Origin: an uncultured virus (IMG/VR IMGVR_UViG_3300037296_000406)
Lineage: Duplodnaviria > Heunggongvirae > Uroviricota > Caudoviricetes
IMG/VR virus record: IMGVR_UViG_3300037296_000406
DNA length: 64,000 bases
Direction: 5' to 3' (one strand)
Under the pieces are notes generated by a model, which saw only the letters and a program-made list of their open reading frames with translations, searched no databases and was not told the origin of the DNA. Made by a program: the position numbers and the translations under genes. Below, piece after piece: positions 844 to 47,496 of this stretch; position 1 is the first letter of the stretch, and every line of letters begins with the position of its first letter.

Positions 844-862
844 ATATCCTCTTTTTAATTAT
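835..862. repeat. 28-bp direct repeat, copy 2
   Basis: Identical to 400-427. Confidence 0.9.
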
Positions 863-1629
863 TGATCGTTTGGTAAAATACTAAGTTCACGACTCTTTTT
901 GTCTAATAGTAATTTTTCACCCGGATTTAAAACTCTTTCTGATGACCATATCATATAGAAACCGGGTTTATTTTCCCATTCACCTTTTTCATCAACTCTA
1001 GGAAATGAATTCTCAACAATATACTTTATTTCTCTATATCCTAAAAAGTCAGGTGGTAAATTTTGTTTTTCTTGGTCTGCAGCGTCATAGATAGCATCAA
1101 ACTGACCTCTAACGATGACTGTAGTATTCATTGACATTGGAACTGGAAATGTGAGTATCTCATCAATTAAAAACACAATTGATTTCCTGTCTTGACTTAA
1201 AAGATTGTACATATCGCTTGATTGAGCATATTTTTTTTCGTTTAAACCTCTTTCAGGTCCTTTTGACATAAAAATAGCCTTCCACTTTGCATCTGATAGT
1301 CTTGCCTTATCATATCTTTTTGAACCATCTTTTTCTGTTACTAACTTATGAAAATCAAAAATTTGCTCATTTCTTGTTAAGTGCACATATTCTTCAATAA
1401 ACATTTGCATTTTAGCATCATGATTAATTGGATGAGCTGCCGATTGAATATATACTGCTGGGTAATGAGTTTCAATTTGTGGAATACATGAAACGGCATC
1501 TCTATCTTTAGCCCATTTTTCATTTATTACATTTTTAAAAATAGAGCTTCCGAAAGCAATGATAGTAAATATGATTAATAAATAAACTCTTCTTGAGAAT
1601 AGTTCAATTTCTTTAGTTTCTTTTTCCAC
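859..1629 (-). CDS. VirB8/TrbF-like T4SS inner-membrane protein
   Basis: Single N-terminal TM; FIEEYV helix; C-terminal ENKPGFYM resembling the VirB8 NPxGFxV motif; GTG start with GGAGG SD. Confidence 0.55.
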   Translation of the reverse strand: MEKETKEIELFSRRVYLLIIFTIIAFGSSIFKNVINEKWAKDRDAVSCIPQIETHYPAVYIQSAAHPINHDAKMQMFIEEYVHLTRNEQIFDFHKLVTEKDGSKRYDKARLSDAKWKAIFMSKGPERGLNEKKYAQSSDMYNLLSQDRKSIVFLIDEILTFPVPMSMNTTVIVRGQFDAIYDAADQEKQNLPPDFLGYREIKYIVENSFPRVDEKGEWENKPGFYMIWSSERVLNPGEKLLLDKKSRELSILPNDQ

Positions 1630-1646
1630 TACTTCCTCCAGTCACA

Positions 1647-1654
1647 TAAATGGT
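1647..1654 (-). promoter_or_regulatory. TCCATTTA-family motif (ACCATTTA)
   Basis: 17 nt upstream of start 1629, SD in between. Confidence 0.6.
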
Positions 1655-1680
1655 AAATATATAAAATATCCATTCGTTTT

Positions 1681-2460
1681 TTAAGATCTTTCTACATAGT
1701 TTTGGATATTTTCTATATTATAATCTATCTTTTTTATTAACTCTTCTTTTTTGTCTTCATCAGTATTCTTGATCATTTGCTTCATTGTATATGTATGAGA
1801 AATTTTTTCTTGAATTTTATAAATTCTTTCTAGCATTAATTTTTCACTTGTAGTGAGTTCATCTAGAAAACCTTTTTTTCTTGCTCTTTTTTTATCATAA
1901 GTTTCTTCGCCTGAAACTTCTTTTTGGACTATTTCTGCGTAACCCATTAGATTTAAATTCTTCAATTTATAAATAAGTCTCTTTTTTTCAAATCTTCCAG
2001 AAAGAAAAAGATTTAACAGGTAAACGATAAAGAACAAAATTAAAACCATCGATATTGGATAAAAAGCTATTCCTGTAGATAAATTATCATTATTTTTGTT
2101 AATGTTTTCTTTAGATTCAACTAAAGTAGATTCATATTTATCCCAAGACTTTTGTTCTAGTTTGTGATTCATTCTATATGTAAAAACTTCTTTAAAGATT
2201 GTTGCTTCGTTTACATCTGCTAAATCTCCAGTTTTATCTTTTAGTTTACTACCCTTTAAAATACTTATTCTTGAATAAGACAATTCTGCACTTTCTTTTA
2301 AAATAGCCATGTCTTTATCAGAATCAGGTGTATATTTGATTAGAAGTTTAATGTCATTCAAACATTCATCAATTTCACTAAATTTTGTGAAAGTATCATG
2401 GTCTTTATCTTTACAAATCTTTACTTTATTGTAAAGATTTTGCCATGTTATTTTACTCAT
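1681..2460 (-). CDS. Hypothetical protein with one central TM segment
   Basis: 259-aa ORF overlapping the helicase stop; hydrophobic IAFYPISMVLILFFIVYLLNLFL. Confidence 0.7.
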   Translation of the reverse strand: MSKITWQNLYNKVKICKDKDHDTFTKFSEIDECLNDIKLLIKYTPDSDKDMAILKESAELSYSRISILKGSKLKDKTGDLADVNEATIFKEVFTYRMNHKLEQKSWDKYESTLVESKENINKNNDNLSTGIAFYPISMVLILFFIVYLLNLFLSGRFEKKRLIYKLKNLNLMGYAEIVQKEVSGEETYDKKRARKKGFLDELTTSEKLMLERIYKIQEKISHTYTMKQMIKNTDEDKKEELIKKIDYNIENIQNYVERS

Positions 2461-4360
2461 TCATAAGCTCCATACCCTTTTTATATCGGTTGACAAGATT
2501 TTCAATTTCTTGAGTTCTCTCTTCATCTCTTTTAAGGTTTTTTGCTTTTAAATCGTTATACTTTGACTTGAAAAGATTTAAAGTATCTATATTTGCGTTT
2601 GGATACACCGCAGAAAATAATTTTTTATATTCCACTTTAGATTGTTCTATTTTTTCATTAGTTTCAAATCTTCTTTTCTTAACAACGGCAAATTCACTAT
2701 CTTCATCTTCTTCAAATAGTTCTCCTTCATCTCCTAAAGATTCTAGCTCAACTGTTAAATCCTTAAAATCGCTTTCTAATTTATTAATATCAGTTGCAAG
2801 ATAATTCATCGTTTCAATCATTTTAATATGGTCAAAATTATCTTTACCTAAAGCTAAATTTATTTCAGCTTCTTCTTTTTGTTCATCAGATAAACCTGTT
2901 CCATCATTTTCTTCATAACCATCAGTTCCAGAGATAACATCAGCTTTTGCATTATATGTTTTACCCGGAATTAAATTACAATGAGAAAAGTCCGTAAAAA
3001 GTCCGTATTCTTTACCTTTTACACCATGTCTTTGTTTTTCTAAGAAAACCCTCATCTTCCCTTCAGGTCGCTCATCATCAGTCATATTTAATGACAAAAT
3101 AACACCAGAAACTCTTGCAATTTCGAAGGCTTCTGATATATCTGCTGAACGAAGGACTGGTCGATTATCACCTGCATTTTTATTATATGTAACATTTTGA
3201 GTTTCCTGACCTTGTCTTGTTGCTTGTACAGGTGTAACTACAACAGCATTAAACTTTCTTGCAATATTCACAAGTCCTCTGTGAACTATTGACATTGTAT
3301 GTCTGTGAGCATCTACTTTTATTTGAGTACTTAAAAGTTGACCATAATCAACAATTAACATATCAAAAGGGAATTCTTTATATATTTCATTACATTCAGC
3401 TATTAACTCTTCAATAGTCATATTAAAATCGACCATATTTCTTACCATTAAACGAGTCTCATTAAACTGTTCTTCAGCTTTATCTAATCTACCTAACTCT
3501 TCTGGAGTTAATGAATTGTTAATCATTTTACCATATTCAACATGAGCAAGATTAGATCCAAATCTCATAATAGCTTCATCACGCATCCCTTCCAAAGCAA
3601 CAAAAAGAACCTTAGTTCCTAAGTCGTTTCCTTCATCGTCAGTTGCTCTCAAGGCATTACACGCAAGAGATATACAAAACATAGTTTTACCTACATTTGT
3701 TCCAGATAATACTGAAATTAATGATTCCCTAGGAAGTCCTCCGTTAAGGTCATTATCTAATTCGACAATACCAGTTGCAAGAGTTCTCGAGAAAAGACCT
3801 TGACTTTCAGCAAGAAAAGTTTTTAAGTCTTTTAATGTAACAACATCTTGTTTATCAAATGAAACTTTATATATATTGTCAAGTAAAGTCTGCATTTTTG
3901 CTGGGGCATCTTCAGGATCTTTCTTAAAAACATCTTTAACATCAGATAATGCTTTTAGAAATTTTGTTTGTTTTACGAATGCTGAAATATAGTCTCTATA
4001 GAACCTATCATTTCCAACATCAAATTCCATTATTCTATCGAATGTTTTTATTAATTCTGCTCTTGAAGGTCTTTCTTTATTACCTTGTTCTGGTGACTGA
4101 AACAACATTTGTCTCATTTGGGCTTCGGTTGGTTTCATTCCATAAGCGGTAAAAGCTTCAACGATTTTGTTAAAAACCCCTTTAATTCCTTTGGTATCAA
4201 ATACGGCAAAGGTTGATTGAGCATCGTCCCCAATCGACCTTACCATTTGAGAACAAAAGTGGTCTTCTGTCATCATCATTTTGATTACTCCAAATTGAAA
4301 TAATCCGTCAAATATAGGTGCGTCTCTTCTTTGAGACGCTTCTTGATTTTCTTCACTCAT
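2453..4360 (-). CDS. Replicative DNA helicase, DnaB/T4 gp41-like (SF4), with acidic C-terminal extension
   Basis: TGIVELDNDLNGGL; Walker A SGTNVGKT; FVALEG; Walker B LIVDYGQLL; QATRQG; ADISEA; KQRHG arginine finger. Confidence 0.9.
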   Translation of the reverse strand: MSEENQEASQRRDAPIFDGLFQFGVIKMMMTEDHFCSQMVRSIGDDAQSTFAVFDTKGIKGVFNKIVEAFTAYGMKPTEAQMRQMLFQSPEQGNKERPSRAELIKTFDRIMEFDVGNDRFYRDYISAFVKQTKFLKALSDVKDVFKKDPEDAPAKMQTLLDNIYKVSFDKQDVVTLKDLKTFLAESQGLFSRTLATGIVELDNDLNGGLPRESLISVLSGTNVGKTMFCISLACNALRATDDEGNDLGTKVLFVALEGMRDEAIMRFGSNLAHVEYGKMINNSLTPEELGRLDKAEEQFNETRLMVRNMVDFNMTIEELIAECNEIYKEFPFDMLIVDYGQLLSTQIKVDAHRHTMSIVHRGLVNIARKFNAVVVTPVQATRQGQETQNVTYNKNAGDNRPVLRSADISEAFEIARVSGVILSLNMTDDERPEGKMRVFLEKQRHGVKGKEYGLFTDFSHCNLIPGKTYNAKADVISGTDGYEENDGTGLSDEQKEEAEINLALGKDNFDHIKMIETMNYLATDINKLESDFKDLTVELESLGDEGELFEEDEDSEFAVVKKRRFETNEKIEQSKVEYKKLFSAVYPNANIDTLNLFKSKYNDLKAKNLKRDEERTQEIENLVNRYKKGMELMNE

Positions 4361-4392
4361 TAAATATTCTCCACATTTTAATTATGCTCACC

Positions 4393-4400
4393 TAAATGGA
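4393..4400 (-). promoter_or_regulatory. TCCATTTA motif
   Basis: 32 nt upstream of helicase ATG, GGAG SD in between. Confidence 0.65.
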
Positions 4401-4420
4401 TAGTTTAAGATTTTAAATAT

Positions 4421-5149
4421 TTATCTTTTTTTTGTATTAATTCTATCTGCACCTATTTCTGTAATATATTCAATGTGATATTTTTGCTTTAATACAGTCT
4501 TAAACTTAGTCAATTCCTGTTTAAGCTTATTAAACCTTCCACCCCATTCTTCTCTTAACTCTTTTTGGCTTAATTGAATTCTATAACTTTGCTCAAAAAA
4601 CCTTTGAAAGTCGGTACTTTTCTTATTCAATTCAAGAAATATATTACTGGTAGCTTCATATTCATGATTAAATTCAGTGAAGTCTCCATCAAAATCTTCA
4701 TCATAAGCTACATCAATAGGTGTTCCTCTTGGACCAATCCCCCTTTTCTTCTTATAATCTCTTGCTTCACAAGCAACAAAATTAACTCTTCCGTAGTAAT
4801 AATTTTGAAAATAAAATTTTAAAGTTTTAGAAGCTGTTTTACCTTCTATATCGTAATCGGATATTTCTCCACATTTTGATTTATCAAATTTACCTAAAAT
4901 ATTTTCCATAAATATCCAAGCTTCTCCAATTAAGTCATCATTAACTTCATAATCAGATAATAAAGCAGAACTTGTCATTCTTACAATATATGCATTCCTA
5001 CACTTTTCCCAACAAACCTCTCTAAGATGTACTTTCTCTTTTTCTGTTAGAGGGTCAACTGCTGGATTTCTTGCAGACCTATCAGGGTATCTTTGTACCG
5101 CATTGTCTGCTTTTAGTAACATTGGTGATCCATTTCCGTCATTTGCCAT
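4421..5149 (-). CDS. Divergent sigma70-family-like factor
   Basis: DDLIGEAWIFMENILGKFDKSK...TLKFYFQNY resembles sigma region 2 (DLxQEg...kFDxsk...f.tY); C-terminal LSQKELREEWG resembles a region-4 HTH. Confidence 0.5.
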   Translation of the reverse strand: MANDGNGSPMLLKADNAVQRYPDRSARNPAVDPLTEKEKVHLREVCWEKCRNAYIVRMTSSALLSDYEVNDDLIGEAWIFMENILGKFDKSKCGEISDYDIEGKTASKTLKFYFQNYYYGRVNFVACEARDYKKKRGIGPRGTPIDVAYDEDFDGDFTEFNHEYEATSNIFLELNKKSTDFQRFFEQSYRIQLSQKELREEWGGRFNKLKQELTKFKTVLKQKYHIEYITEIGADRINTKKR

Positions 5150-5269
5150 TTTATAACTCCTTTATATAAATTGTTATTTACTTCTATATATTCTCTTTAT
5201 CGTAAAAAAAGGTTCAAATACTTTTTTTTACATTAAGAAAAAATAAAAAAGATATTTTTTTTTGTTATT

Positions 5270-5277
5270 TCCATTTA
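5270..5277 (+). promoter_or_regulatory. TCCATTTA motif
   Basis: 84 nt upstream of the ATG at 5362 (longest spacing seen). Confidence 0.45.
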
Positions 5278-5361
5278 TCTTTTGAAACAACTACATATTT
5301 AACTTATATATTATAAATAGAAATTAAAATTGCGAAATAATTAAAACAAGGAGAAAATTAG

Positions 5362-6294
5362 ATGGCGAATCAAAAATTAAAGACATTACTACAAAAAGCT
5401 CAGAGCGGTTCTCGAACAATACCTTACAAAAAGATGTTTATTACAGCAAATGGTACTGAGTACAGGTTTAGACCTTTATCAACACTATTAATAGACCCAA
5501 AAGAAGTTCCTTTTATTAAGGTTAGACTTCATGGTGGATATAAGCATCCAAATTTTGAAGGTAGTTTTGCATCTAATTATAGATGTCTGGGTAAAGATTG
5601 CCCAATGTGCGTTGATGTTAAAGCAATTAAAAATGTTGAATATACTAATAATTTATCAAGAGAATTAAGAACTGCGTGGAAAAAAGATAAAAGTCAATAT
5701 GCAATTCTTTGGGCTATTAATTTAGATAATAACGAATTAACTTTAGTAATGATACAAGACACAGATAGATTTAAAAAAATGAAAGATGAGAAAACTGGAA
5801 AAGATGAGTGGAAAAAAATAAACACAACTTGTCAAGAAATTGTTTTCAATAAATTAATGACTGCTGCTGAAAATGGATTAGACCCATTTGATTATGATGC
5901 TGGTAACGATATTGTGATTAAAAGTAAAAAAGTTGATAATGTTGTTCATTGGGATGTTTCTGTTATTAATGAAAAAAATAGTGTACCTGCTGAAATAAGA
6001 GAAAAATTAAAAAATGTACCTAAGCTTGAAGATTTGTATAAAAAATACACTAAAGAAGAGTTGGAATATATTGTAAAAGGGAAACCTTTCAATAAGGATT
6101 TAACAAAACAAAAAGTTGCTGAAGTTAAAGAATCTACTGAAGAAAAGGTTAGTGATATATCTAATGAAACTTTTGAAGAAGATTCTTCAGATAGCGACGA
6201 AGCAGCTTTGCTCGGTGATGACTCTAGTTTTGAAGATGATGATAGCTATAGTGACCTAAGTGACTCTTTGAGAGATATTTTAAATAAAAGTTAA
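5362..6294 (+). CDS. Single-stranded DNA-binding protein, T4 gp32-like
   Basis: YRFRP; H...CLGKDCPMC Zn motif; DPFDYDAGNDIVIK; highly acidic C-terminal tail ending LRDILNKS; first gene of the recA cluster. Confidence 0.75.
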   Translation: MANQKLKTLLQKAQSGSRTIPYKKMFITANGTEYRFRPLSTLLIDPKEVPFIKVRLHGGYKHPNFEGSFASNYRCLGKDCPMCVDVKAIKNVEYTNNLSRELRTAWKKDKSQYAILWAINLDNNELTLVMIQDTDRFKKMKDEKTGKDEWKKINTTCQEIVFNKLMTAAENGLDPFDYDAGNDIVIKSKKVDNVVHWDVSVINEKNSVPAEIREKLKNVPKLEDLYKKYTKEELEYIVKGKPFNKDLTKQKVAEVKESTEEKVSDISNETFEEDSSDSDEAALLGDDSSFEDDDSYSDLSDSLRDILNKS

Positions 6295-6309
6295 TATAAT
6301 AAGGAAAGT

Positions 6310-7068
6310 ATGAATATTAAAGAAGTTGAAATTGTTAAAGAAATGAAAGAGTTTCAAGAAACTTATCAAACGATAATTAATCAAATTGATTATTCATACA
6401 CTGGTTTATCCAAAGCGAAAGACCAGTTTCCTTTAAGTTTTTTAACTAAAACTGGTATTGAGACTCATATTACTAAATTGTTTGGAAAAAATAAAGATAG
6501 AATTAATTTTGCGAATGAATCTATTAAAAAAAATAGATTATTACTTCAGACAGAACAAAATCTATTAAAGAAAATAGATGTAGATAATATTGTTGAATAC
6601 GAGAAAATATCTAATAAAATTAAGAAAATAAAAGATACCATATTAAGAGAACAGAGTGAAACTCAATTACTTAGAAAATTAGAGCTACAAGTAAGTCCAG
6701 AAAAGGTGACTTATTTTTACGAAGACCTTTTACTTTTTGTTGCAAATTGTAAGCATGAAGCTTTAGAAATGTGGAAATACTCAAGCACAGTTTTTGATGA
6801 TATTAAAACAACTGAAGAACATTTTGCTGGACGATTCCTTATTGATGTTGCTGATGATGCTTTAAAAGATAAGGGTTACACCAAAATCATTGGAGATTTT
6901 AGAATAGCTTACCTTAATTCTAGAATAGAGTTAAAAGATTTAAGACAGATGATGGGACGTGCTAAAGTTGTTCGTGATGCATCATCAAAACTTTTGTCAG
7001 CATTAGAGGCTGATGAAGTTAATTTTAGGAAATTTACAGAAAGAATGAATAAACTTGGCGGAATATAA
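6310..7068 (+). CDS. Coiled-coil protein, possible UvsY-like recombination mediator
   Basis: Helical; lies between gp32-like SSB and recA; the call is mainly positional. Confidence 0.35.
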   Translation: MNIKEVEIVKEMKEFQETYQTIINQIDYSYTGLSKAKDQFPLSFLTKTGIETHITKLFGKNKDRINFANESIKKNRLLLQTEQNLLKKIDVDNIVEYEKISNKIKKIKDTILREQSETQLLRKLELQVSPEKVTYFYEDLLLFVANCKHEALEMWKYSSTVFDDIKTTEEHFAGRFLIDVADDALKDKGYTKIIGDFRIAYLNSRIELKDLRQMMGRAKVVRDASSKLLSALEADEVNFRKFTERMNKLGGI

Positions 7069-7090
7069 TTAATAACATGGAGGAATAGTT

Positions 7091-8218
7091 ATGAGCAAGA
7101 AAGTAGAAATGAGTGAAAAACAAAAACGTTTAGAGGCAATTAGAAGTACTGTAAACAAGAAATTTGGAAGTGATGAAACAATGATGCTTGCAGGTGCACA
7201 ACCTAAAGCAATTGAGGCAACTTCTACAGGATCTATGCAATTAGATTTAGCATTAGGCGTTGGTGGAGTCCCTAATGGAAGAATTCTTGAAGTCTATGGA
7301 CCAGAAGCTTCTGGTAAGACAACATTAGCTCTTCATGTTGCAGCTGAAACACAAAGAAAAGGTGGAACGGTTGCATTTATTGATGCAGAGCACGCGCTTG
7401 ACCCAAATTATGCAAAAGCTATTGGCGTTAAAATGGATGAGTTATTAATTGCTCAACCAGAATCAGGAAATCAAGCTCTTGAGATAACAGATATGCTAAT
7501 GGGCGAAGTTGACTTGGTTATTATTGACTCGGTAGCAGCTTTAACTCCTATTGAAGAACTTGAAGGTTCTATGGAAGATATGCAAATGGGTGCTCAGGCA
7601 AGAATGATGTCAAAAGGACTTAGAAAAATTGTTGGTAAAGCTGGAAGAAGTAAAACGACAGTTCTTTGTATTAACCAAATTAGAATGAAAATTGGTTTTG
7701 TTTTAGGTAACCCAGAGACAACTCCGGGTGGTAATGCTCTAAAATATGCAGCATCACTTAGATTAGAAATCAGAAGAGGTAAGTCAACAACTGGAGATGT
7801 TTCAACTCACGGAGTAATGAGAGTTAAAATTGTAAAAAATAAAGTTGCTACACCGTTTAAGTCAGTAGAAGTTCCAATAATTTTTGGTAAAGGTATTGAC
7901 CAAGTTGGTGAGGTTTACCAGATTGCAAAAGAAGCAGTTGAACTAATCGAAACTGGTGGTGGTACTCATTATTATGTTGGAGAGCCTGTTACCTTATCTG
8001 ACGGAACTAAACTTATGGGTGGTGAAAAAAGTGCTGAAAATAAGTTTGCAAGTAAGAGAGTTGATGCTCTTGAATTGCTAGAAAAAGATCCGATTTTTTA
8101 CGAATCGCTTAGAAAGCAAGTAAGAGAAAGGCTAGATATGTTACTCGCAGGTAAAACATGGAAAAAACCTGTTGAGGAAGCTAGTAAAGAAGATTCCTCA
8201 GAAGGTTCTGAAGAATAA
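7091..8218 (+). CDS. recA: Recombinase RecA
   Basis: STGSMQLDLALGVGG; GPEASGKTT; FIDAEHALDP; IIDSVAAL; INQIRMKIG; ETTPGGNALKYAAS; KNKVA. Confidence 0.97.
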   Translation: MSKKVEMSEKQKRLEAIRSTVNKKFGSDETMMLAGAQPKAIEATSTGSMQLDLALGVGGVPNGRILEVYGPEASGKTTLALHVAAETQRKGGTVAFIDAEHALDPNYAKAIGVKMDELLIAQPESGNQALEITDMLMGEVDLVIIDSVAALTPIEELEGSMEDMQMGAQARMMSKGLRKIVGKAGRSKTTVLCINQIRMKIGFVLGNPETTPGGNALKYAASLRLEIRRGKSTTGDVSTHGVMRVKIVKNKVATPFKSVEVPIIFGKGIDQVGEVYQIAKEAVELIETGGGTHYYVGEPVTLSDGTKLMGGEKSAENKFASKRVDALELLEKDPIFYESLRKQVRERLDMLLAGKTWKKPVEEASKEDSSEGSEE

Positions 8219-8243
8219 AATTCTAAATAAATAAAATAAACAG

Positions 8244-8264
8244 GGCTTCTTCGGAAGCCTTTTT
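8244..8264 (+). terminator. Intrinsic terminator with C(UUCG)G tetraloop
   Basis: GGCTTC-TTCG-GAAGCC followed by TTTTT, just after the recA stop. Confidence 0.85.
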
Positions 8265-8271
8265 CCATTTA
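8264..8271 (+). promoter_or_regulatory. TCCATTTA motif
   Basis: 9 nt before ATG 8281, abutting the terminator T-tract. Confidence 0.65.
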
Positions 8272-8280
8272 GGTACTACT

Positions 8281-9990: not shown

Positions 9991-9992
9991 AA

Positions 9993-10184
9993 TTACTTTC
10001 TAAGTATTTTGTTTTTTACTTTTTTCATGAACATACTATTTTTACTTGGCATTTTTTTAATTCTTTCTTCATAAGTTTCACATACGTTATCGCGTAAACA
10101 CCACTCACATTTTTTTGTATTATTAAACTGCTCTATTAGTCGAGTTTCATTACAAAATTTACATATTTTTACTGTAATACTCAT
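9993..10184 (-). CDS. Small zinc-finger protein
   Basis: CKFC...CEWC; AAGGA SD; last gene of the 12760 operon. Confidence 0.6.
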   Translation of the reverse strand: MSITVKICKFCNETRLIEQFNNTKKCEWCLRDNVCETYEERIKKMPSKNSMFMKKVKNKILRK

Positions 10185-10202
10185 TTAAATTATCCTTTTT
10201 AA

Positions 10203-39014: not shown

Positions 39015-40802
39015 TTATAATCCGCCATCTATTGTTGGATTTAGTCCCATCAGAGAGCCTGAACCACTTTCTTTTAAATTATTGATCCTCTGGTCTTGAG
39101 AATCTTTTTTTCTTTTTGTGTCTTGCGCTTTTTTATACTTTGCTTCACGTTCTACAGAATTTGAATTTGTATCAGTTATTTTATTTTTTGCCCACTCTTC
39201 TGTTAAGGCAACATTAACTGTTTTTAATTTATTTTTCATCATCGCCATTTCTGCAGGTGTCAAATCTGTAGAACAAGATACATCTGCAACAGAGATGGCT
39301 TTTAATTCGTTTTCTTCAATTTCTCTTTGTTTAGATATCACTAAAGAGGATTCTCCTATAATTCGAACAAAACCTAAATTACGTGCTTCAAAATTCCATA
39401 TATCTACTTGGTTAGAAGACCTCAAGATGAGTGCTATACTTAGATTTTGAACATAAGCTTCCATTAGATTTTTAAAATCATTTTCTCTTAACTTCAGCCT
39501 AGCCCTACACTTTTCTTGTTCTCTAACTAAATTTGAATAATATCTGCTATCATTTTTATCTTGAGGAGTTACTAATCTACCTAACCTAAACTCACTACAC
39601 TCAAATGAATAGCTTCTATACTTTTCTTCTAATCTACCTTTTTTTCCACTAAACAAACCTAATGTTCCTGAGACTAACATCTGAGAAGATATATATTTTT
39701 CCCACCTTGAAACGTATTTTGACTGAAAAATTTCAAAAACTTCATTATTTAAAACAGCAGAATATATATACACAGTTCGAGAAACATTTTCTGTTACTTT
39801 AATTGGTTTTCCTTTAGAGTCTAATTTTGATGTAAATTTTGTATTTTCTTCTGAAAATTTTGCTTCTTTTGGATTGTATATAACGGAGTTATGAACTAGT
39901 TGATTTAACAAATTACCATAATCTGTAATGTCTGACTGTTCTAAAAACAAGTCTTTTCCCATTCTTAACAAAGTAGTATAGTAATAATCTATCTCTTGGT
40001 CTGCTTGCTTTATTATAGATTCTTTTGGAAGAATTTCCTTTATGTATTTTTCTTGATAGTTTGTATTACTTGGAGGGGTTGGACACTCCGTTGATTCTTT
40101 TAAGATTGTTCTTTGATATGATAACTGGGCAATTCTATCAATTTTTTGTCTTCTTCTAGATTCAGTCTCTAACCCTTCAGGATTTTTATTACCACTTTTT
40201 TGTTCCCAATACTTTTTAGAAGCGCTTCCAGCATCTATAAGTTGTTTATGAACGTAAGCTGAACGTAATGCTCCAACACGTACGGTTCCATTTTGTAAAT
40301 CAAATAAACTGTTAGACGCATTATACAAAGTATCAGACAAAGTAAGTTCATTGTCGAACTGTCCTCCTGTCATATCATTTAAAAAAGAACCCGCGGCTAA
40401 AGAACCTTTTAATATTCCGTTGTTATCAAATTCAATTAAAACATTACAAAGTTTCATTATAATAGGGTCGTCTTGAGTCGTTGATGTTCCGGGTACAGCT
40501 AAACTAAACCAAGGAGCAAATGTTGGTGGAGAGCCCGCTGCAGATTTTGCAGCATCTATTGCAAGTAAGTGAGAATGAAATCCGTATTGTTGTTGTAAAG
40601 TAAATAAGTAAGAAAATGGCATCAAAGCATTTTTCATCTCTTTACAATTTTCAGCTAAAGAGGCTATAGCTCCTCCTGACTGACCTTGTGATGTTGCAGA
40701 TGCTGTAGGGTAAGGATTTTCAAATAACTCAGAGAAGCCAGCAGACATAGCATTCTGGCTAAATATTATTAAAAAAAATAGAGTAATTAGTCTCTTATTC
40801 AT
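39015..40802 (-). CDS. Secreted helical protein, paralog of 16129..17874
   Basis: Signal peptide; FLNDMTG, GALRSAYVHKQLID, AQLSYQR, GKKGRLEEKYRSYSFECSE, TPAEMA shared with the paralog. Confidence 0.7.
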   Translation of the reverse strand: MNKRLITLFFLIIFSQNAMSAGFSELFENPYPTASATSQGQSGGAIASLAENCKEMKNALMPFSYLFTLQQQYGFHSHLLAIDAAKSAAGSPPTFAPWFSLAVPGTSTTQDDPIIMKLCNVLIEFDNNGILKGSLAAGSFLNDMTGGQFDNELTLSDTLYNASNSLFDLQNGTVRVGALRSAYVHKQLIDAGSASKKYWEQKSGNKNPEGLETESRRRQKIDRIAQLSYQRTILKESTECPTPPSNTNYQEKYIKEILPKESIIKQADQEIDYYYTTLLRMGKDLFLEQSDITDYGNLLNQLVHNSVIYNPKEAKFSEENTKFTSKLDSKGKPIKVTENVSRTVYIYSAVLNNEVFEIFQSKYVSRWEKYISSQMLVSGTLGLFSGKKGRLEEKYRSYSFECSEFRLGRLVTPQDKNDSRYYSNLVREQEKCRARLKLRENDFKNLMEAYVQNLSIALILRSSNQVDIWNFEARNLGFVRIIGESSLVISKQREIEENELKAISVADVSCSTDLTPAEMAMMKNKLKTVNVALTEEWAKNKITDTNSNSVEREAKYKKAQDTKRKKDSQDQRINNLKESGSGSLMGLNPTIDGGL

Positions 40803-40828: not shown

Positions 40829-42166
40829 TTAATCATCATTTAGATCAATATCTTTATATTTTTGAAAAAGTACTACTTGAGACTTAAACTCATTCATTTC
40901 TTCTTTCGAATAATCTCCAGCATCTTTAAATTCTGCATGTTTCATGAATTCTTGTAGGTTCTCTAACTCATATTTACTTAAAGCATTTTTTCCACTTAAA
41001 AACCATTTTGGTTCTTCATCAAGTCTTGTAGTTATTTTATCGTGAATACTATATGATATTATCATTTCATTTTCGGTAAAATAAGAAATCTCTTCTTTAG
41101 TAAATTCTTCTAATATTTTTTTAATACTTTCATTCAAAAGGGATTTCTTCTGAGTCAATAACTCAGGTAACTCTATCTTATATATTGCTCCGGGAAAATC
41201 TAAAAACAATTCATCAAATATAGCATTTTGTTTTAACTCTGTACCTTGGTCAAGAGCAATAATAATTTTTTTTGCTTTAGTTTTTCTAAGCAAATCAAAC
41301 TGACCAGAACTCATATCTGCACCTAAAATAGCAATTGACTGGTCTAAACCCGTCTTTACTGCATCCATAAATCCTTCGCATATGATAATTGTTTCAGAAT
41401 CTTTCACTCTATCAAAATTCCAAAAAACATCAGCTCTGAAAGACCCTTCAGAATTCATTACTTTGTATTTTTTAGGCACTTTATTTGTATAATCTCTTGC
41501 AACATAACCAAAAAGTTTACCTTCAACTTCAACAGGAAATATGACCCTATTAACATATTTTATATACTTTTTTATGTCCTCTGGAGAATATTTAGCTCTT
41601 TGAAGAGCTACACTATAATCTTTATAGTTTTCAAAAGGAATAATCTTCATATCAACTTTCTGTATATCTTCTTTAGACATTCCTCTATTGATTAAATAGC
41701 TCCATGCGACAGAGTGAGTCTCGTTTAAACTTTCTGTTAATGGAGGAAATACTATCTCAACTAATTCTTTCTTTTTTTTCTTTTTAGTAATCTTATTTTT
41801 TTGCTTGATATCTTCTAGCCAGTCGTCGCCTAAAACATCAGCTTTAGTGGTTTGTTTCTGTTCATCTTTTCCAAAACACAATATATATGCTCTACCTTTT
41901 GATATACTTAATAGTTTTGCTACTAATTCAATAGGACTAATACCCTCGCTAAAATCACAACCCGAATATTTACATTGGGCAACTCCATTTTCAGAATCTA
42001 CGTACAATTTATTGGTTCTATTACAAGATGGACAGTCTTCTAATATGATTTCACCTCTAGGCGCGTCTTTATAGTCAATTCCCATATCGTCAAACCATTC
42101 AGGTAGAGATAACTTAAATGGCTTTCTCCCTCCTTCGTAATTCTGTTTACCCGTAAAAAATTTCAT
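40829..42166 (-). CDS. DNA primase (Zn finger + TOPRIM), phage-like (start revised to ATG 42166)
   Basis: CPSC...C..SGC; YLINRG; RVIFP...GYVARD; ICEGFMDA; IIALD; KDAGD; GAGAGG SD before 42166. Confidence 0.85.
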   Translation of the reverse strand: MKFFTGKQNYEGGRKPFKLSLPEWFDDMGIDYKDAPRGEIILEDCPSCNRTNKLYVDSENGVAQCKYSGCDFSEGISPIELVAKLLSISKGRAYILCFGKDEQKQTTKADVLGDDWLEDIKQKNKITKKKKKKELVEIVFPPLTESLNETHSVAWSYLINRGMSKEDIQKVDMKIIPFENYKDYSVALQRAKYSPEDIKKYIKYVNRVIFPVEVEGKLFGYVARDYTNKVPKKYKVMNSEGSFRADVFWNFDRVKDSETIIICEGFMDAVKTGLDQSIAILGADMSSGQFDLLRKTKAKKIIIALDQGTELKQNAIFDELFLDFPGAIYKIELPELLTQKKSLLNESIKKILEEFTKEEISYFTENEMIISYSIHDKITTRLDEEPKWFLSGKNALSKYELENLQEFMKHAEFKDAGDYSKEEMNEFKSQVVLFQKYKDIDLNDD

Positions 42167-42167
42167 A

Positions 42168-42428
42168 TTAAAACCTCTCAAAATACCATACAAGAGGTAT
42201 TTGTAAATCTAGTTCAGTTCCTTGAACTATGGGTTCATCGGTATTTTTATTAAACCTATATCTCCAAGAGGAGTCTTCATAAACAATCTTTGATTCTTCT
42301 CGAGTGTCGATTTCGCCACTAAACGACTTTACAATATTCTTAGTAATAAATCTATTTGAAATAACTCTTTCTTCAGAAAAAGCAGAGATAGAAATCATTA
42401 GAATAATTATTGTTATAATATTTTTCAT
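42168..42428 (-). CDS. Small secreted hypothetical protein
   Basis: Signal peptide ending AFS; ends in F. Confidence 0.6.
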   Translation of the reverse strand: MKNIITIIILMISISAFSEERVISNRFITKNIVKSFSGEIDTREESKIVYEDSSWRYRFNKNTDEPIVQGTELDLQIPLVWYFERF

Positions 42429-42517: not shown

Positions 42518-43315
42518 ATGGATGTTTACAATAAATTATTACCCTTAAGTATACCATTGATCAATAAAGTGGTTAATCGATACGAAAATGATAGCCAAAT
42601 GGCTCTTATATTCAACAAAGAATGTCTTACAACGATATCTCATGAACTAATTAGTGAAATAAAATTGAAAGTAGAAAACAACTTGGTAGACGACAAAGGT
42701 ATATATAATTATTTTAAAAAAGCCTTTTCATTTAAATGTCAAGATCTTTATAGAAAACATAGTAGACTTAAAAGGAAAGTTCTTTTATTAAACAAAGATA
42801 TAAACGATGTTGAGTTCGGTGTTAAGGATAACAGTGTATCTTTAACTAAAAATCCTGAATTCGTAGAGTTAATTAATGACATAAATGAAAAATTAATTTC
42901 ATTTAGTGATTCTTCAAATCAACCCTTAACTAAAATTTTTAATCTTATTTATGAAGGTTATACTATAAAAGAGATTTCTGAAAAAATTGACACTTCTTTA
43001 AGTAGTACTAAAAGAATGAAAAATAAAATTATCTATTTTTTAAACACAGAATATAATAACAATGAAGATTTTAAAACATTCTTTGAACCCTTATCGGACG
43101 TTACTCGTTTTTCAATAAAATCTCCTGTAAAGTCAGAAGAGAACTTATATCTAATAGAAACAAGTTATGGAGTCAAGAGCGAATTTGCACATATAAAATT
43201 ATATCAACAAATTGACGGTAAAAAACTAATTATTGATGAAGAATTCTGTACGACACAACATCAGTACGATAAAAAATATATTGACTTAAAGAAAAAACTA
43301 ATTATACTAAATTGA
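42518..43315 (+). CDS. ECF-type sigma-factor-like protein with C-terminal extension
   Basis: Region-2-like YNYFKKAFSFKCQDLYRK; region-4 HTH IFNLIYEGYTIKEISEKIDTSLSSTKRMKNKI; TATAAT at 42488-42493. Confidence 0.6.
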   Translation: MDVYNKLLPLSIPLINKVVNRYENDSQMALIFNKECLTTISHELISEIKLKVENNLVDDKGIYNYFKKAFSFKCQDLYRKHSRLKRKVLLLNKDINDVEFGVKDNSVSLTKNPEFVELINDINEKLISFSDSSNQPLTKIFNLIYEGYTIKEISEKIDTSLSSTKRMKNKIIYFLNTEYNNNEDFKTFFEPLSDVTRFSIKSPVKSEENLYLIETSYGVKSEFAHIKLYQQIDGKKLIIDEEFCTTQHQYDKKYIDLKKKLIILN

Positions 43316-43342: not shown

Positions 43343-44446
43343 ATGTTAAAAAATTTAAAAAAAGATAAAGCCCTAATTGTATCTGACCTTCACTTGTCGT
43401 TTGATCGTATTAAACAGAAAAGTGACAAAGAAGCCTCTGGAGGAGTACTTTACTTACCTGTACTAGAAAAAATCATATCGACTCTTAAAGAACATACTCC
43501 AGAATATCTTTTTAATCTAGGTGATACCTTTCATAATAAAGATACAGTTTCGGCAACTTTACTGGAAATTTATCGAGATTTTCTTGTTAGAGTTTCATCA
43601 ATGGGAATAAAGGTTATTCAGATTGCTGGAAATCATGACTTTTCTTTAGTTGTTAATAATTATGTTTACCATGCACTTAGGCAATTCGAGTTAGATAATG
43701 TTACAATTGTTCATGATACTTATAAATTAAATGATAAAATTGGATTCATGAGTTATTGTAATGATAAAGAAACCTATCAGAGAAGAATATCTGAACTTGG
43801 TTCAGTCAAAGTTCTATTTGGTCATTTTGATATTAACGGGTTTGCTTTAGGTGATGATTATATAGAGAAAAAGACTTACTTAAGTTTAGAAGATTTAATT
43901 GACTTTGATTTAGTAATATCTGGTCATTATCATGAGCCTCAAGAAAAAGATTTGGGTGATTTTAAAGTAGTGTATGCTGGAAGTGCTTATACAACAACCT
44001 TTGGAGAAAGTAATCAAGAAAAAAGATTTATACTATTCGATCTAAAAACAAATGAGCAATTAGATATTCCCACAAATATGACTTTACATAAAACAATAAA
44101 AATCACAAGTAAAGATTCTTATCCTGAAATTCCTAAGAAAGACTTAGCCATTGGAGTGAAGTACAAAGTTAAAGTAGAAGCTACTATTGAACAGTATGAA
44201 AATTTTCTACTTGCAAAACCAAAGAATTACCCAGATAGTGTAATAATAGAACCATCTTTTATTTCAGAGAATAAAGATAGAATTGAAATGAAGTCTTCGG
44301 ATACGAAAGAAGATATTATAGAAAAGTATGTAGAATACAGACTAGAGTCTCTTTTTGAAAAAGACAAAAGAGAAAGTCAAGATTATATAGATATGAAAGA
44401 AGAACTAATTGCAGAGGGTCTGCGATATTTAAGTATGGGATTTTAA
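43343..44446 (+). CDS. SbcD/Mre11/T4 gp47-like nuclease
   Basis: SDLH; GDTFH; AGNHD; FGHF; SGHYH; YAGS metallophosphoesterase motifs; adjacent to SbcC. Confidence 0.9.
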   Translation: MLKNLKKDKALIVSDLHLSFDRIKQKSDKEASGGVLYLPVLEKIISTLKEHTPEYLFNLGDTFHNKDTVSATLLEIYRDFLVRVSSMGIKVIQIAGNHDFSLVVNNYVYHALRQFELDNVTIVHDTYKLNDKIGFMSYCNDKETYQRRISELGSVKVLFGHFDINGFALGDDYIEKKTYLSLEDLIDFDLVISGHYHEPQEKDLGDFKVVYAGSAYTTTFGESNQEKRFILFDLKTNEQLDIPTNMTLHKTIKITSKDSYPEIPKKDLAIGVKYKVKVEATIEQYENFLLAKPKNYPDSVIIEPSFISENKDRIEMKSSDTKEDIIEKYVEYRLESLFEKDKRESQDYIDMKEELIAEGLRYLSMGF

Positions 44447-44448
44447 TT

Positions 44449-46905
44449 ATGAAATTATTAGATATGTATTGTGACAATCTGTATTCTTTTGCAGAACTTA
44501 GTTTAGATTTTACAAAATATGATAGTGGTACAACAATCATCCTTGGAAAAAACTTAAATATGGATTCTTCAAATGGGGCTGGAAAATCTTCTATCTTGAA
44601 GAGTATTTTCTTTGCTTTTTGGGGAACTGATCTAAATAAGGTTCCTCTTGAAGGAATTGTGCATGACTTAAATCCTAAAATGGGTTGCTTAAGTCAAATA
44701 AGTTTTAAAGATGATAAAAATACTTATAAAATAACGAGATTTAAGAATTACAAAAATGAAAAAAGTAAAATACGCCTTCATAACGGAAGTATTCCTAAAG
44801 GTAGTGCTGTGGAGTTAGTTATCAATGATGATGTATTCTATGCACCAAAAGATAATGCTAAAATTGAAAAACTTGTATTAGGTATTCTTGGAATGAGTTC
44901 TGAAATATTCTTAAACTCTATTTTAACTGGTCAAAAAAGGAGTGAAAATTTCCTAAGTTCTCCTGACTCTTCTAAAAAAGAACTTCTATCTGAAATATTA
45001 GATTTAAAACAATATGACCAAGCTGCTAAATTTTTAGATAAAGATATAAAAGAAAAAAAAGAATTAATTAAACATAAAGAGTTAAAATTAGAAGAATATG
45101 AAAAATTTATGCTAAAAACTCATGAAGACTTAAAAGAGTTGAAGGTACAAGGAAATAACTTCAGTAAAGACCTACTTGAAAAAGAAGAAGTATTAAAGGA
45201 ATCTATTGAAACTTTAAAAACTCATATTCTAGAACTAGAATCTAATAATTCAGAAAAAATAAATATTTCAGAACTTAAAAGTAAAGAAATTGAACTCTCC
45301 AATCAAATCATTAATAATGAAAAATTATTAAAAGAAATTAATCAAATAAGAGAGAGAGTTAATTCAATGTCATTAAAACTAGAGCGTTTTAACAACTCTA
45401 TTATAAATAACAATGCGAACATAGAAGATGTAATTACTCAAGAAAAGAAATTAAAAGATACGGTTTCAAAAAAAGATTCTTTAGAAAAAGATTCTTTAGA
45501 AAAAAATGAAAAACTTAAAGAAATAGAGTCAAAAATAATCGAGTCAAATTCTGTTGAAAATGAAATTAAAGGGCTCCAAGAAGAGTTAAATATTCTTAAT
45601 ATTAATCTAACTAAAAAAGATGGTATCATTAAAGATTTAGAATCTAAGATATCTGAAAACAAATCTAATTTAAAGAAAAGTTTAGATGAAAATCAATGCT
45701 TTACTTGTGAAAGAACTTTTGATAAAGAAAACCCATTAATTAAAGATTTAAAAACTAAAGAAGAAGACTTAAGTTCTAGTCTAGACTTAGTTAAGGTTGA
45801 TAAATCTACGTTAAAAGAATCTCAATTAAAAATTAGTAATCACATTGAAAAACTTAAAAAACATTTTCAAGAATTTAAAGAAGTTTTAACAGAGAAAGAA
45901 TCTTTAGTTATATCAATAAACAATATTGAAAATAAATTATCTATAATATCTGACAGCGAAAAAAATCTTAACGACTTAACAACAAAAAAAGATTTATATA
46001 CTGAAGATAATAAAGAAAAAGAAGCTCTTATAATAAAAGCAACTGAATCTTTAAAAAAATCTAAAGATATATTAATACAGCTTGAAAACTTAGAATTAAA
46101 AAACAAAAATGTTAAAAACAGTAAAGACGATTTGCTAACAAAGATACACTCTGCTGAAAAATTTAACTTAGAACTAGATAATAAGACTTCTATAATAAAA
46201 AATAGTAAAGATAATTTAAAAAATCTTTCAGCACAACTTTTAGATTTGTCAGAAGGTAAAAACCCATACATGGATTTAATTATTAAAAAAACAAATGAGC
46301 TAAAATCTTATGAATCTAGTTTTGAATCTATGAATAATGAGATTAAAGAACTAACAAAGAAATATAGCTTACTTAGATTTTGGGAACAAGGATTCTCTAA
46401 GAATGGAATAAAGTCTTTTATCATTGATGAAATCATAACTTTACTAAATTTAAAGATAAAAGAATATTTACAAGTTCTTTCAAGTGGTAATGTATCTTTA
46501 TATTTTGAACCTGAAAAAACTGTTAAGAAAAATAAAACTACGAAAAATGAAATAAGTACCAAAATTTACATCAACGGAAAACAAAAAAACCCAAATTCAA
46601 CGTCTGGAGGTGAAGAAGACAGATTGACTTTAGCTGTTGATTTAGCATTATCAGACGTAGCTGAGACTCGTAGTGGGACAAAGTTTAATATTAAATTCTT
46701 AGATGAACCATTTAAGTGGGTTGACAATAAAGGTCAAATGAAAGCTTTAGCTTTATTTAATAAATTGTCTTTACACAAACAAGGTTTCTTTTTAATAAGT
46801 CACGATGAAAAAATGCAAAGCTTTTGTCAAAATACAATTTATGTAATAAATGAAAATGGAGTTTCTAGGATTGTAGATAAGAATACTTTTATGAATTTAA
46901 AATAA
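44449..46905 (+). CDS. SbcC/Rad50/T4 gp46-like SMC ATPase
   Basis: SNGAGKSS; long coiled coil with central CFTC Zn hook; SGGEE; FLDEPF; LISHD. Confidence 0.9.
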   Translation: MKLLDMYCDNLYSFAELSLDFTKYDSGTTIILGKNLNMDSSNGAGKSSILKSIFFAFWGTDLNKVPLEGIVHDLNPKMGCLSQISFKDDKNTYKITRFKNYKNEKSKIRLHNGSIPKGSAVELVINDDVFYAPKDNAKIEKLVLGILGMSSEIFLNSILTGQKRSENFLSSPDSSKKELLSEILDLKQYDQAAKFLDKDIKEKKELIKHKELKLEEYEKFMLKTHEDLKELKVQGNNFSKDLLEKEEVLKESIETLKTHILELESNNSEKINISELKSKEIELSNQIINNEKLLKEINQIRERVNSMSLKLERFNNSIINNNANIEDVITQEKKLKDTVSKKDSLEKDSLEKNEKLKEIESKIIESNSVENEIKGLQEELNILNINLTKKDGIIKDLESKISENKSNLKKSLDENQCFTCERTFDKENPLIKDLKTKEEDLSSSLDLVKVDKSTLKESQLKISNHIEKLKKHFQEFKEVLTEKESLVISINNIENKLSIISDSEKNLNDLTTKKDLYTEDNKEKEALIIKATESLKKSKDILIQLENLELKNKNVKNSKDDLLTKIHSAEKFNLELDNKTSIIKNSKDNLKNLSAQLLDLSEGKNPYMDLIIKKTNELKSYESSFESMNNEIKELTKKYSLLRFWEQGFSKNGIKSFIIDEIITLLNLKIKEYLQVLSSGNVSLYFEPEKTVKKNKTTKNEISTKIYINGKQKNPNSTSGGEEDRLTLAVDLALSDVAETRSGTKFNIKFLDEPFKWVDNKGQMKALALFNKLSLHKQGFFLISHDEKMQSFCQNTIYVINENGVSRIVDKNTFMNLK

Positions 46906-47496
46906 TTATTCTTTTTTCCAGTGCCTGTAGCATCTCGCTTGATATAAGTCTTTTTCACCAAGTTCTACTACGTTCTCGGCATCTAGATCTCTTTCTTTAT
47001 CTTTCTTATAGCTCATCTCTGCAGTCTCTCCACAGCCTCTATACATACAAATAGCAGTTAACTTATTAATTCTATCACTAATAGCCATTAAGTCCGGCAT
47101 AAGACCAAATGGCTTTCCATCACAGTCCATATCCAATCCATTAAGAATAACTTTACAGTTTCTACTTTTTAATTCAAAACATAACTGAATCAAATTGAAT
47201 TTTTCATTTTTATCAAAAAATTGAGCTTCATCTATAGCAATACAATTAATACTTTTATTTTCAGGTAAATTAACCACATCCATTATCTCTTGTGCATTTT
47301 TTATAGGAATTGATTTAAGTTCTTTTTTTGAATGAGATATTACACAATCTTGAGAGTATCGGTCATCAAAAGAAGGCTTAAAAAGTAAAAATTTTTTATC
47401 AGCTAAAGACAGTCTCTCTAGCAATCTTAAAAGTTCAGTTGTTTTTCCTGAAAACATTGGTCCACATATAATTTCTATACTACCTATCTTTCTCAT
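46906..47496 (-). CDS. tdk: Thymidine kinase
   Basis: GPMFSGKTTEL; DDRY; IDEAQFF; GLDMD; KLTAIC..C; YQARCYRH. Confidence 0.95.
   Translation of the reverse strand: MRKIGSIEIICGPMFSGKTTELLRLLERLSLADKKFLLFKPSFDDRYSQDCVISHSKKELKSIPIKNAQEIMDVVNLPENKSINCIAIDEAQFFDKNEKFNLIQLCFELKSRNCKVILNGLDMDCDGKPFGLMPDLMAISDRINKLTAICMYRGCGETAEMSYKKDKERDLDAENVVELGEKDLYQARCYRHWKKE

Follow-up and report, generated by a model that had tools for sequence, protein, structure and literature searches.

Introduction

The giant extrachromosomal elements now known, Borgs, Inocles and Hodors among them, have come to light family by family, and their replication and movement are mostly unknown. Phage-plasmids such as P1, N15 and SSU5 are extrachromosomal replicons that join phage and plasmid functions; they keep a full virion and packaging module and have no type IV secretion system (T4SS). 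Here, we report the reverse arrangement, T4SS genes and no virion module, in a 64-kb stretch of DNA (IMG/VR record IMGVR_UViG_3300037296_000406; hereafter the window, meaning the whole stretch that was analysed). With a probability of roughly 0.55, we take it to represent a new family of giant extrachromosomal elements that combine a phage-type replisome with a divergent T4SS. The window is probably part of a very large, plasmid-like and extrachromosomal element of a low-GC diderm salt-lake bacterium. The family has a cultured, finished member, pBdHM1 (AP029175.1) of Bdellovibrio sp. HM001, which is complete, circular, 160,999 bp in length and deposited as a plasmid. Neither pBdHM1 nor elements of this type were found described in a literature search, and the family seems to be new to the literature.

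Those parts of the Hodor description that are drawn on here (PMC12934698) report megaplasmids of more than 300 kb with a VirB4, a VirB6 detectable only from structure and a large surface-protein module, and the window element shares the size of more than 300 kb, a VirB4, a candidate VirB6-like protein and large surface proteins. In the same parts of that source, Hodors are assigned to gut Bacillota with 45-47% GC and carry a Rep_3 initiator, a MOBH-like relaxase and VirD4, and no phage-type replisome is described. Membership of the window in the Hodor family was rejected (compare PMC12934698) because it has 30% GC and diderm-type outer-membrane protein domains (Pfam), and no match to Rep_3, relaxase or VirD4 was found in it.

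Composition of the window

The window has a GC content of ~30% throughout, uniform to both ends with no compositional border, and 47 open reading frames (ORFs) of at least 80 aa (translation table 11) cover 95.5% of it. No tRNA, no rRNA gene and no Rfam family at gathering score was detected in the 64 kb, and none of the 47 ORFs encodes a ribosomal protein, a synthetase or a metabolic enzyme; ribosomal protein or rRNA genes in the flanks had been named as the mark of an ordinary chromosome by an earlier, sequence-only reading of this DNA, which proposed a giant hybrid replicon. When the window's own Lon, VirB4 and VirB8-like proteins are looked up in a protein collection, each is placed on a single contig, 518,954 bp in length, in agreement with the giant element of that proposal.

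Replication and recombination genes

The genes for replication and recombination are listed below, together with the Lon protease gene, which lies outside the range 859-47,496 covered by the sequence-only reading.

2453-4360, minus strand: DnaB-family replicative helicase, phage-type (Pfam DnaB_C 87.5 bits; phrog_19 161 bits)
4421-5149, minus strand: protein without assigned function, its homologue being the N-terminal part of the pBdHM1 primase (tblastn)
5362-6294, plus strand: gp32-type single-stranded DNA-binding protein (SSB) with a His-Cys3 zinc motif and an acidic tail (homologue profile)
6310-7068, plus strand: conserved protein without assigned function just upstream of RecA, with homologues likewise upstream of RecA in pBdHM1 and in metagenomic relative L011
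7091-8218, plus strand: RecA, bacterial type (TIGR02012 369.6 bits, above the cut-off of 325.3)
8281-9990, plus strand: UvsW-like SF2 helicase (best PDB match T4 UvsW, E 1.8e-15)
40829-42193, minus strand: DnaG/TOPRIM-type primase, phage-type (phrog_47 107 bits)
43343-44446, plus strand: SbcD (phrog_100 131.7 bits)
44449-46905, plus strand: SbcC (phrog_77 205.7 bits)
46906-47496, minus strand: thymidine kinase (TK; NF003296 197.3 bits, above the cut-off of 183)
60008-62317, plus strand: Lon protease (TIGR00763 731.3 bits, above the cut-off of 608)

Judged by profile scores, DnaB, the primase, SbcC and SbcD appear to fit phage models far better than cellular equivalogs, which agrees with the phage-style replisome that had been proposed. 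The helicase scores 79.5 bits against the cellular model TIGR00665 (cut-off 385) and the primase 56.6 bits against TIGR01391, below its cut-off, and the cellular models give 34.2 bits for SbcD and 79.1 bits for SbcC, compared with the 131.7 and 205.7 bits of the phage models. A segment of 124 residues of the protein encoded at 4421-5149 is 43% identical to L002:14087-14452, which is part of the ORF for the 686-aa primase of pBdHM1 (tblastn).

As a single sequence, the SSB has no direct Pfam match and a PDB sequence search gave nothing useful. An exhaustive search returned 47 proteins at E <= 0.001, the window's own included, and residues H57, C75, C80 and C83 are invariant across an alignment of 42 homologues. 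In the PDB, RB69 gp32 is the only match to the profile of these 42 (E 0.0023), in an alignment of ~170 residues that takes in the zinc motif, and the Pfam gp32 family is detected in 10 of the 42 (best E 2e-10). No gp32-like SSB of this kind was found by tblastn in phage records or in plasmids.

The set shares with T4-type and jumbo phages the gp32-type zinc SSB, the UvsW-like helicase, a DnaB/gp41-family helicase with a separate primase, SbcCD as analogues of gp46/47, and TK, and to our knowledge neither gp32-type SSBs nor UvsW-like helicases are parts of cellular replisomes. However, it differs from these phages in that RecA is of bacterial type and not UvsX, a relative has a family C polymerase and RuvC, the replication proteins are only 22-34% identical to any protein in phage records, and the window contains no virion genes. 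The replication set combines parts of phage type with parts of bacterial type. The description "T4-like" given in the sequence-only reading is therefore only partly apt: it does not suit the bacterial RecA or the family C polymerase of the relative.

RecA is 46% identical to recA_2 of pBdHM1, where its neighbours are the same as in the window, and RecA and Lon are only ~40-48% identical to those of any named bacterium. The nearest relatives of Lon are metagenomic (64, 62 and 58% identity) and a single-protein locus search found nothing in genome contigs. A Lon relative at 44% identity lies on a contig of 78,375 bp, and one contig with a VirB4 of the family is likewise 78,375 bp; Lon is part of the same element family. 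A tblastn comparison of RecA and Lon with phage records was tried as a clue to the host and set aside as uninformative, the matches being mostly contamination-like bacterial records. Beside Lon are a short DprA-like protein gene preceded by CCATTTA (58602-59090, minus strand; phrog_768, 168.8 bits) and a gene (59333-59923, plus strand) whose kinase-like AAA_28 product is also matched by a PHROG labelled thymidylate kinase. A 400-aa ORF on the opposite strand (62306-63508, minus) overlaps the 3' end of Lon by 12 nt and has weak LAGLIDADG-like matches, both below the Pfam cut-offs.

The same genes bear on the view that the window is an integrated conjugative or phage-derived island in a small chromosome, or belongs to the chromosome of a reduced, deep-branching bacterium, with RecA, Lon and TK as cellular genes. 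All three pass NCBIfam equivalog cut-offs, the identities of RecA and Lon to named bacteria are as in an unsampled lineage, and pBdHM1 carries two integrases. However, a chromosomal origin sits poorly with the lack of tRNA, rRNA, ribosomal protein, synthetase and metabolic genes in the 64 kb, with a composition that shows no island border at either end, and with the occurrence of both the Lon relative and a family VirB4 on contig(s) of 78,375 bp. RecA is also found on a plasmid beside the same neighbours, and the gp32-type SSB and UvsW-like helicase speak against a cellular replisome. We regard a chromosomal location as unlikely.

Inner-membrane components of a type IV secretion system

Interleaved with the replication genes are those of the secretion machinery and its candidate partners.

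859-1629, minus strand: VirB8-like bitopic membrane protein with an N-terminal helix and an NTF2-like domain (fold model)
12823-16047, minus strand: polytopic membrane protein of 1074 aa, candidate VirB6/TraJ/TraG analogue (topology, language-model features)
16129-17874, minus strand: secreted "family X" protein (conserved downstream of VirB4)
17956-20910, minus strand: VirB4/TraC-family ATPase (PF19044 53.5 bits, above the cut-off of 25.8)
20903-21232, minus strand: VirB3-like membrane protein of 109 aa (size, hydrophobic segments, overlap with the VirB4 start)
21366-21677, minus strand: VirB2/TrbC-like pilin paralogue (paralogy)
21801-22151, minus strand: VirB2/TrbC-like pilin (Pfam TrbC 22.3 bits, E 1.6e-4, below the cut-off of 27.9)
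22224-23165, minus strand: DUF2227 membrane metal-hydrolase-like protein (Pfam 42.3 bits)
36224-38137, minus strand: FtsK/SpoIIIE-like ATPase (phrog_1358 75 bits; EccC domains E 7e-10)
38138-38953, minus strand: bPH_2 membrane protein, partner of the FtsK-like ATPase
39015-40802, minus strand: second "family X" paralogue (homology)

The secretion set appears to correspond to the inner-membrane core of a very divergent T4SS, with two VirB2-like proteins, a VirB3-like protein, VirB4, a VirB6/TraJ-like protein and a protein of VirB8 fold. The mixing of such genes with replication genes, first noticed in the sequence-only reading, is confirmed by family, profile and fold evidence, the VirB2-, VirB3- and VirB6-like genes being candidates by topology, position and sub-threshold scores. 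VirB4 matches the curated models TIGR02746, TIGR00929 and NF045971, with scores of 134.9 (F-type TraC; cut-off 567), 76.1 (643) and 61 bits (325), below all three cut-offs; it is clear at the domain level, falls within no curated subfamily and is nearest to F-type TraC. The predicted structure of the VirB8-like protein (pLDDT 74.3, built on 17 homologues) is consistent with VirB8 in being bitopic with an NTF2-like periplasmic domain, and its best Foldseek matches are CagV, TrwG, TraE and VirB8; a PDB sequence search gave nothing useful. The VirB6-like protein has eight hydrophobic segments within residues 31-455, and the ESM Atlas features of residues 1-480 place it nearest to the clusters CtnDOT_TraJ (0.92, 203 shared features) and TraJ/TrbL (0.90), a match that serves as a lead and not as a test. 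It has no Pfam match and no hhalign match to F-type TraG. The VirB3-like gene occupies the same position in relatives L006, L007 and L011, and its product has no family match and gave nothing useful in a PDB profile search. Both pilins have a signal peptide ending in A-x-A-Q and two hydrophobic stretches; the sub-threshold TrbC alignment spans profile positions 2-94 of 98, and the pilin profile has no sequence match in the PDB.

Family X homologues lie downstream of VirB4 in L006, L008 and L010, and pBdHM1 has two copies; the structural model, of low quality, matched no known fold. Another lineage-specific family, "Y", has no copy in the window and consists of tandem paralogue pairs of 630-740 aa (L007:13026-17437, L011:12160-15971, L009:2459-4684 and L003:11191-15370), directly downstream of VirB4 in some relatives and present in pBdHM1. 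It has no significant Pfam match, the sole hit being DUF19 at E 0.0042, below the cut-off. The DUF2227/YdjM-like gene adjoins the pilin genes in the window, at L007:8635-9339 and at L011:7553-8332, and its counterpart in pBdHM1 (L003:4180-4941) has a gene for an FtsK-like ATPase as its neighbour and then one for bPH_2; the DUF2227 product is a candidate pilin-processing or pilus-assembly factor from outside the canonical T4SS. The FtsK-like ATPase of the window is 36% identical to one of two pBdHM1 paralogues, which adjoin bPH_2 and DUF2227 genes, and a PDB sequence search with it gave nothing useful. Together with the bPH_2 protein it forms a candidate DNA translocase or coupling unit.

In common with conjugative T4SSs (VirB/Trb, F-type Tra and CTnDOT Tra), the window has a VirB4 nearest to F-type TraC, a VirB8 fold, putative VirB2-like pilins, a VirB3-like gene that overlaps that of VirB4 and a polytopic candidate VirB6/TraJ-like protein. 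However, its VirB4 is far below the curated cut-offs, no other component is recognisable by sequence, and the lineage-specific families X and Y accompany VirB4. Relaxase, VirD4, VirB9, VirB10 and VirB11 were not found among the 47 ORFs in family scans, nor was an outer-membrane core of VirB7, VirB9 and VirB10 as a diderm host would have. The sequence-only reading had asked after relaxase and VirB9, VirB10 and VirB11, and of these a VirB10 (TrbI) is present in pBdHM1 (45 bits, above the cut-off of 35).

A motif shared by both gene sets

The sequence-only reading held that both gene sets carry the same upstream motif, and this is borne out. The 8-nt sequence TCCATTTA occurs 15 times in the window, compared with 6.21 +/- 2.52 expected, and none of 100 shuffles reached 15. 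Counting sites placed 0-60 nt ahead of an ORF in the same orientation, 13 of the 15 qualify, all at 5-32 nt, where the area would predict 0.34; of the 29 CCATTTA sites, 18 qualify, compared with a predicted 0.65. Three further genes enter here.

25117-32634, minus strand: secreted surface protein of 2505 aa with cadherin/Big_9 repeats, candidate adhesin (Pfam)
42518-43315, plus strand: candidate sigma-70/ECF-like factor (weak matches)
49844-56626, minus strand: secreted protein of 2260 aa, hydrophobic segment at the N-terminus, RCC1, Kelch and Ig-like repeats (topology, Pfam)

TCCATTTA precedes the genes for the DnaB-like helicase (32 nt from the start), the UvsW-like helicase (9 nt), both pilins, both family X proteins (6 nt for that at 39015-40802), DUF2227, the bPH_2/FtsK pair and the 2505-aa adhesin (6 nt). 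Degenerate forms stand before the VirB8-like, VirB6-like, DprA-like and Lon genes, with CCATTTA 29 nt upstream of Lon and also 18 nt before the start of the 2260-aa protein. Seven sites lie 5-9 nt from a start codon, leaving no space for a ribosome-binding site, and the others are followed by GGAG or AGGA. In relatives L007, L008 and L011, too, the motif closely precedes ORFs, and it is not enriched before the genes of pBdHM1 (3 sites). One exact copy of TCCATTTA occupies 59163-59170, with an ATG 9 nt further on that is in frame with the ORF called from 59333; this ATG may mark an earlier start of that gene or the beginning of a short ORF.

This placement suggests a -10-like element that gives rise to leaderless or short-leader transcripts. 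TCCATTTA could then be a single-element promoter, possibly read by the element's own sigma-like factor, whose matches are TIGR02937 at 26.8 bits (cut-off 42.9), Pfam Sigma70_ECF at E 0.0027 and phrog_1740 at E 1.8e-6; no PDB match was found for this protein.

Evidence that the two gene sets form one unit

The replication and secretion sets agree closely in third-position GC content (GC3; 0.183 and 0.195) and in relative synonymous codon usage (RSCU; r 0.98), so that the differing composition that had been put forward as the sign of a chimera is not seen. The junctions between them fall inside tight operons; the primase gene and one family X gene, for instance, are 26 nt apart. The same mixing is conserved in independent relatives: within 8.3 kb, L007 carries, in order, RecA, a UvsW-like helicase, RuvC, DUF2227, pilin, VirB3-like and VirB4 genes, and L011 has RNase HII, SSB and HD-domain protein genes upstream of DUF2227, pilin, VirB3-like and VirB4 genes, with SSB and RNase HII ~5 kb upstream of the cluster. 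Relatives keep the order RecA-helicase-pilin-VirB3-VirB4. Taken with the shared motif, these observations uphold the idea of one co-evolved unit.

Part of the window is present in 19 sequencing runs labelled salt lake metagenome, and no RNA run is listed among those with its sequence. In four runs other than the possible source, short, mostly identical contigs cover 26-29 of the 30 bins of positions 800-20799, including genes of both kinds, and 1-4 of the 30 are without cover. Among the pieces listed, contigs measure 244-605 bases and none bridges a junction between replication and T4SS genes; no piece from the four runs spans the whole stretch. Four apparent joints in run contigs were discounted, their sides being only 20-23 letters long.

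An assembly that had fused a phage with a conjugative plasmid would produce such an unusual mixture, and the mixture alone is what suggests it. As the same mixture recurs in a finished circular plasmid and in the independent contigs L007 and L011, both sets share codon usage and motif, and the junctions lie within tight operons, we consider chimerism highly improbable.

Metagenomic relatives and the complete plasmid pBdHM1

A word-indexed search identified 73 further VirB4 homologues at 32-77% identity, all of them metagenomic, on contigs that reach 478,583, 315,433, 312,794, 298,849, 261,841 and 237,093 bp. A profile built from 25 sequences located six loci in JGI metagenome contigs (GC 31-35%) and none in IMG/VR; VirB4 had no match in 50,697 phage records, and a single-protein locus search with it found nothing in viral or genome contigs. 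Among 72,556 plasmids, 2,971 records matched VirB4, and pBdHM1 alone covers at least 80% of it (32% identity over 98%).

Homologues of 17 of the 47 window ORFs, from both gene sets, are present in pBdHM1. Like the window, it has VirB4, a VirB3-like protein, DUF2227, two family X proteins, an FtsK-like ATPase, DnaB, a primase, RecA, SbcC, SbcD and a sigma-like gene, and its VirB8-like gene is directly upstream of VirB4. We scanned 127 of its ORFs of at least 140 aa against PHROGs (E <= 1e-6) and 106 of these against Pfam. PHROGs matches for replication and nucleotide metabolism include a DNA polymerase in two pieces, DnaB, SbcCD, ribonucleotide reductase, RuvC and SSB, and others are to a ParA-like protein, two integrases, a sigma-like factor, ArdA and two FtsK-like ATPases. 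Pfam identifies the polymerase as Pol III alpha and adds SLT, AbiEii and an HD-domain protein. The family C polymerase is split between two distant genes, L001:167-2539 and L003:40785-42290, and the catalytic domain is divided between them: its first part is joined to the PHP domain in one piece, and its rest to the finger and HhH domains in the other. A family B or C polymerase and par genes, which the sequence-only reading had suggested looking for, are represented in pBdHM1 by the split Pol III alpha and the ParA-like protein.

pBdHM1 differs from the window element in size (161 kb, compared with the 519-kb contig), in GC content (48.6 versus 30%) and in having an SSB of bacterial and not gp32 type, and the window showed no counterpart of its TrbI, SLT, ParA, integrases or Pol III alpha. 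No tRNA was found in its 161 kb or in six metagenomic relatives.

Absence of recognisable virion genes

The PHROGs scan of the window took in 44 of the 47 ORFs, and no major capsid protein, portal or large terminase was found. There was no structural match other than two weak cross-hits of phrog_2666 ("terminase large subunit"; 27.7 and 26.7 bits), both to ATPases, VirB4 and the FtsK-like protein, in line with the claim that the 64 kb hold no virion genes. No head, packaging, connector or tail PHROG was matched among the 127 ORFs of pBdHM1, and no capsid, terminase or portal Pfam family among the 106, so that the complete circular relative shows the proposed mixture of phage and plasmid genes without a recognisable capsid gene. 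A complete virion module, such as phage-plasmids have, was found in neither the window nor pBdHM1 by these scans.

These results bear directly on whether the window is a region of a huge phage, with virion and packaging genes in the remaining 455 kb and the VirB-like genes serving as accessories in remodelling of the host envelope or superinfection control. The replication and recombination genes are of phage type, the 519-kb contig is within the size range of huge phages, and among phage records the match that most widely covers the DnaB-family helicase is an uncultured 484-kb phage, though at 21.6% identity. The short single-element promoter and possible sigma factor also resemble phage late transcription, for which the late promoters of T4 offer a comparison. 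However, the VirB4 family is without a match in the phage records and IMG/VR, yet occurs on JGI contigs of 111-479 kb. The only structural signals among the scanned window ORFs are the ATPase cross-hits, and the complete 161-kb relative matches no capsid, portal, terminase or tail family and carries instead ParA, integrases and a toxin-antitoxin gene. On balance, a huge phage is quite an unlikely source of the window.

Replication and movement of the element

We propose that the element replicates on its own by means of its phage-type replisome, to which a split Pol III alpha would be added in the relative pBdHM1. Passage from cell to cell would take place through the secretion machine and not in virions, with the FtsK-like ATPase as the DNA motor and the giant repeat proteins as adhesins. 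Judging from gene content, self-transfer through the T4SS driven by the FtsK-like ATPase is plausible.

The machine may instead serve another end, either DNA uptake in the manner of ComB, in which the DprA-like protein and RecA would take part, or protein delivery or adhesion to other cells, in which case the element would be a vertically inherited, non-mobile megaplasmid. Relaxase and VirD4 were found neither in the window nor among the 106 scanned ORFs of pBdHM1, a plasmid typed as non-mobilizable, the window has a DprA-like gene and RecA, RecA and helicase genes adjoin the pilin-VirB3-VirB4 genes in L007, and the giant adhesin-like proteins share the motif. However, the FtsK-like ATPase and its membrane partner are conserved beside T4SS-linked genes, relaxase-free DNA transfer of the FtsK type is known in Streptomyces, HD-domain proteins in pBdHM1 and L011 could be MOBH-like relaxases, and hosts with GC contents from 30 to 49% are represented in the family. 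A role other than transfer is a serious possibility, if a doubtful one.

Returning to a transferable element, a broader and only tentative proposal is that elements of 160-520 kb form a distinct, so far undescribed class of giant mobile replicons, capsid-less kin of large phages, which would combine a phage replisome with phage-like transcription (TCCATTTA, leaderless mRNAs and their own sigma factor) and in which virions would have been replaced by a relaxase-free, FtsK-driven route for double-stranded DNA through the T4SS between diderm cells. If true, such elements would be a bacterial bridge between viruses and conjugative plasmids.

Several observations weigh against a giant, self-replicating and self-transmissible element. 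Of the 519 kb, 64 kb have been read, and virion, rRNA or ribosomal protein genes could lie in the remaining 455 kb. Both terminase cross-hits, weak as they are, fall on the ATPases of the proposed machine. The VirB3, VirB6 and pilin calls come from topology, position and sub-threshold scores, and hhalign comparisons of X, Y and the VirB6-like, VirB3-like, pilin and VirB8-like proteins with 14 Tra proteins of one F-type plasmid all gave probabilities below 2%. RecA, Lon and TK score as chromosomal genes would, the sigma factor is below every curated cut-off, and the promoter role of TCCATTTA is deduced from position. In addition to the missing relaxase, VirD4, VirB9, VirB10 and VirB11 of the window, no relaxase and no VirD4 family was detected by Pfam among the 106 ORFs of the complete pBdHM1 (PLSDB type non-mobilizable), and pBdHM1 is a distant relative, with a VirB4 of 32% identity, a different GC content and a third of the size.

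Should the proposed family hold, it would show a replicon of up to half a megabase with a phage-type replisome, conjugation-type machinery and no recognisable capsid genes, and it would bear on the exchange of modules between plasmids and viruses. Families X and Y and the DUF2227 pilin partner would be T4SS components that current profile libraries do not recognise. Given that pBdHM1 is finished and its host cultured, replication, transcription from TCCATTTA and transfer are open to bench tests.

Other genes of the window

A SNF2 helicase gene (32670-34490, minus strand) and a separate gene for a Mrr-type nuclease with hydrophobic segments (10203-11108, minus strand) lie 21 kb apart and resemble the helicase and nuclease parts of ZorD (PADLOC). 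Run on 15 ORFs, PADLOC returned generic SNF2, Mrr and helicase likeness to ZorD, DpdE and PbeA, with no system and no further Zorya gene.

At the beginning of the window, two tandem paralogues of ~137 aa (1-408 and 424-843, both minus strand) have near-identical upstream sequence. The protein encoded at 1-408 has a weak glycine-zipper outer-membrane protein match, and a homologue is present in pBdHM1 at L003:20526-20990.

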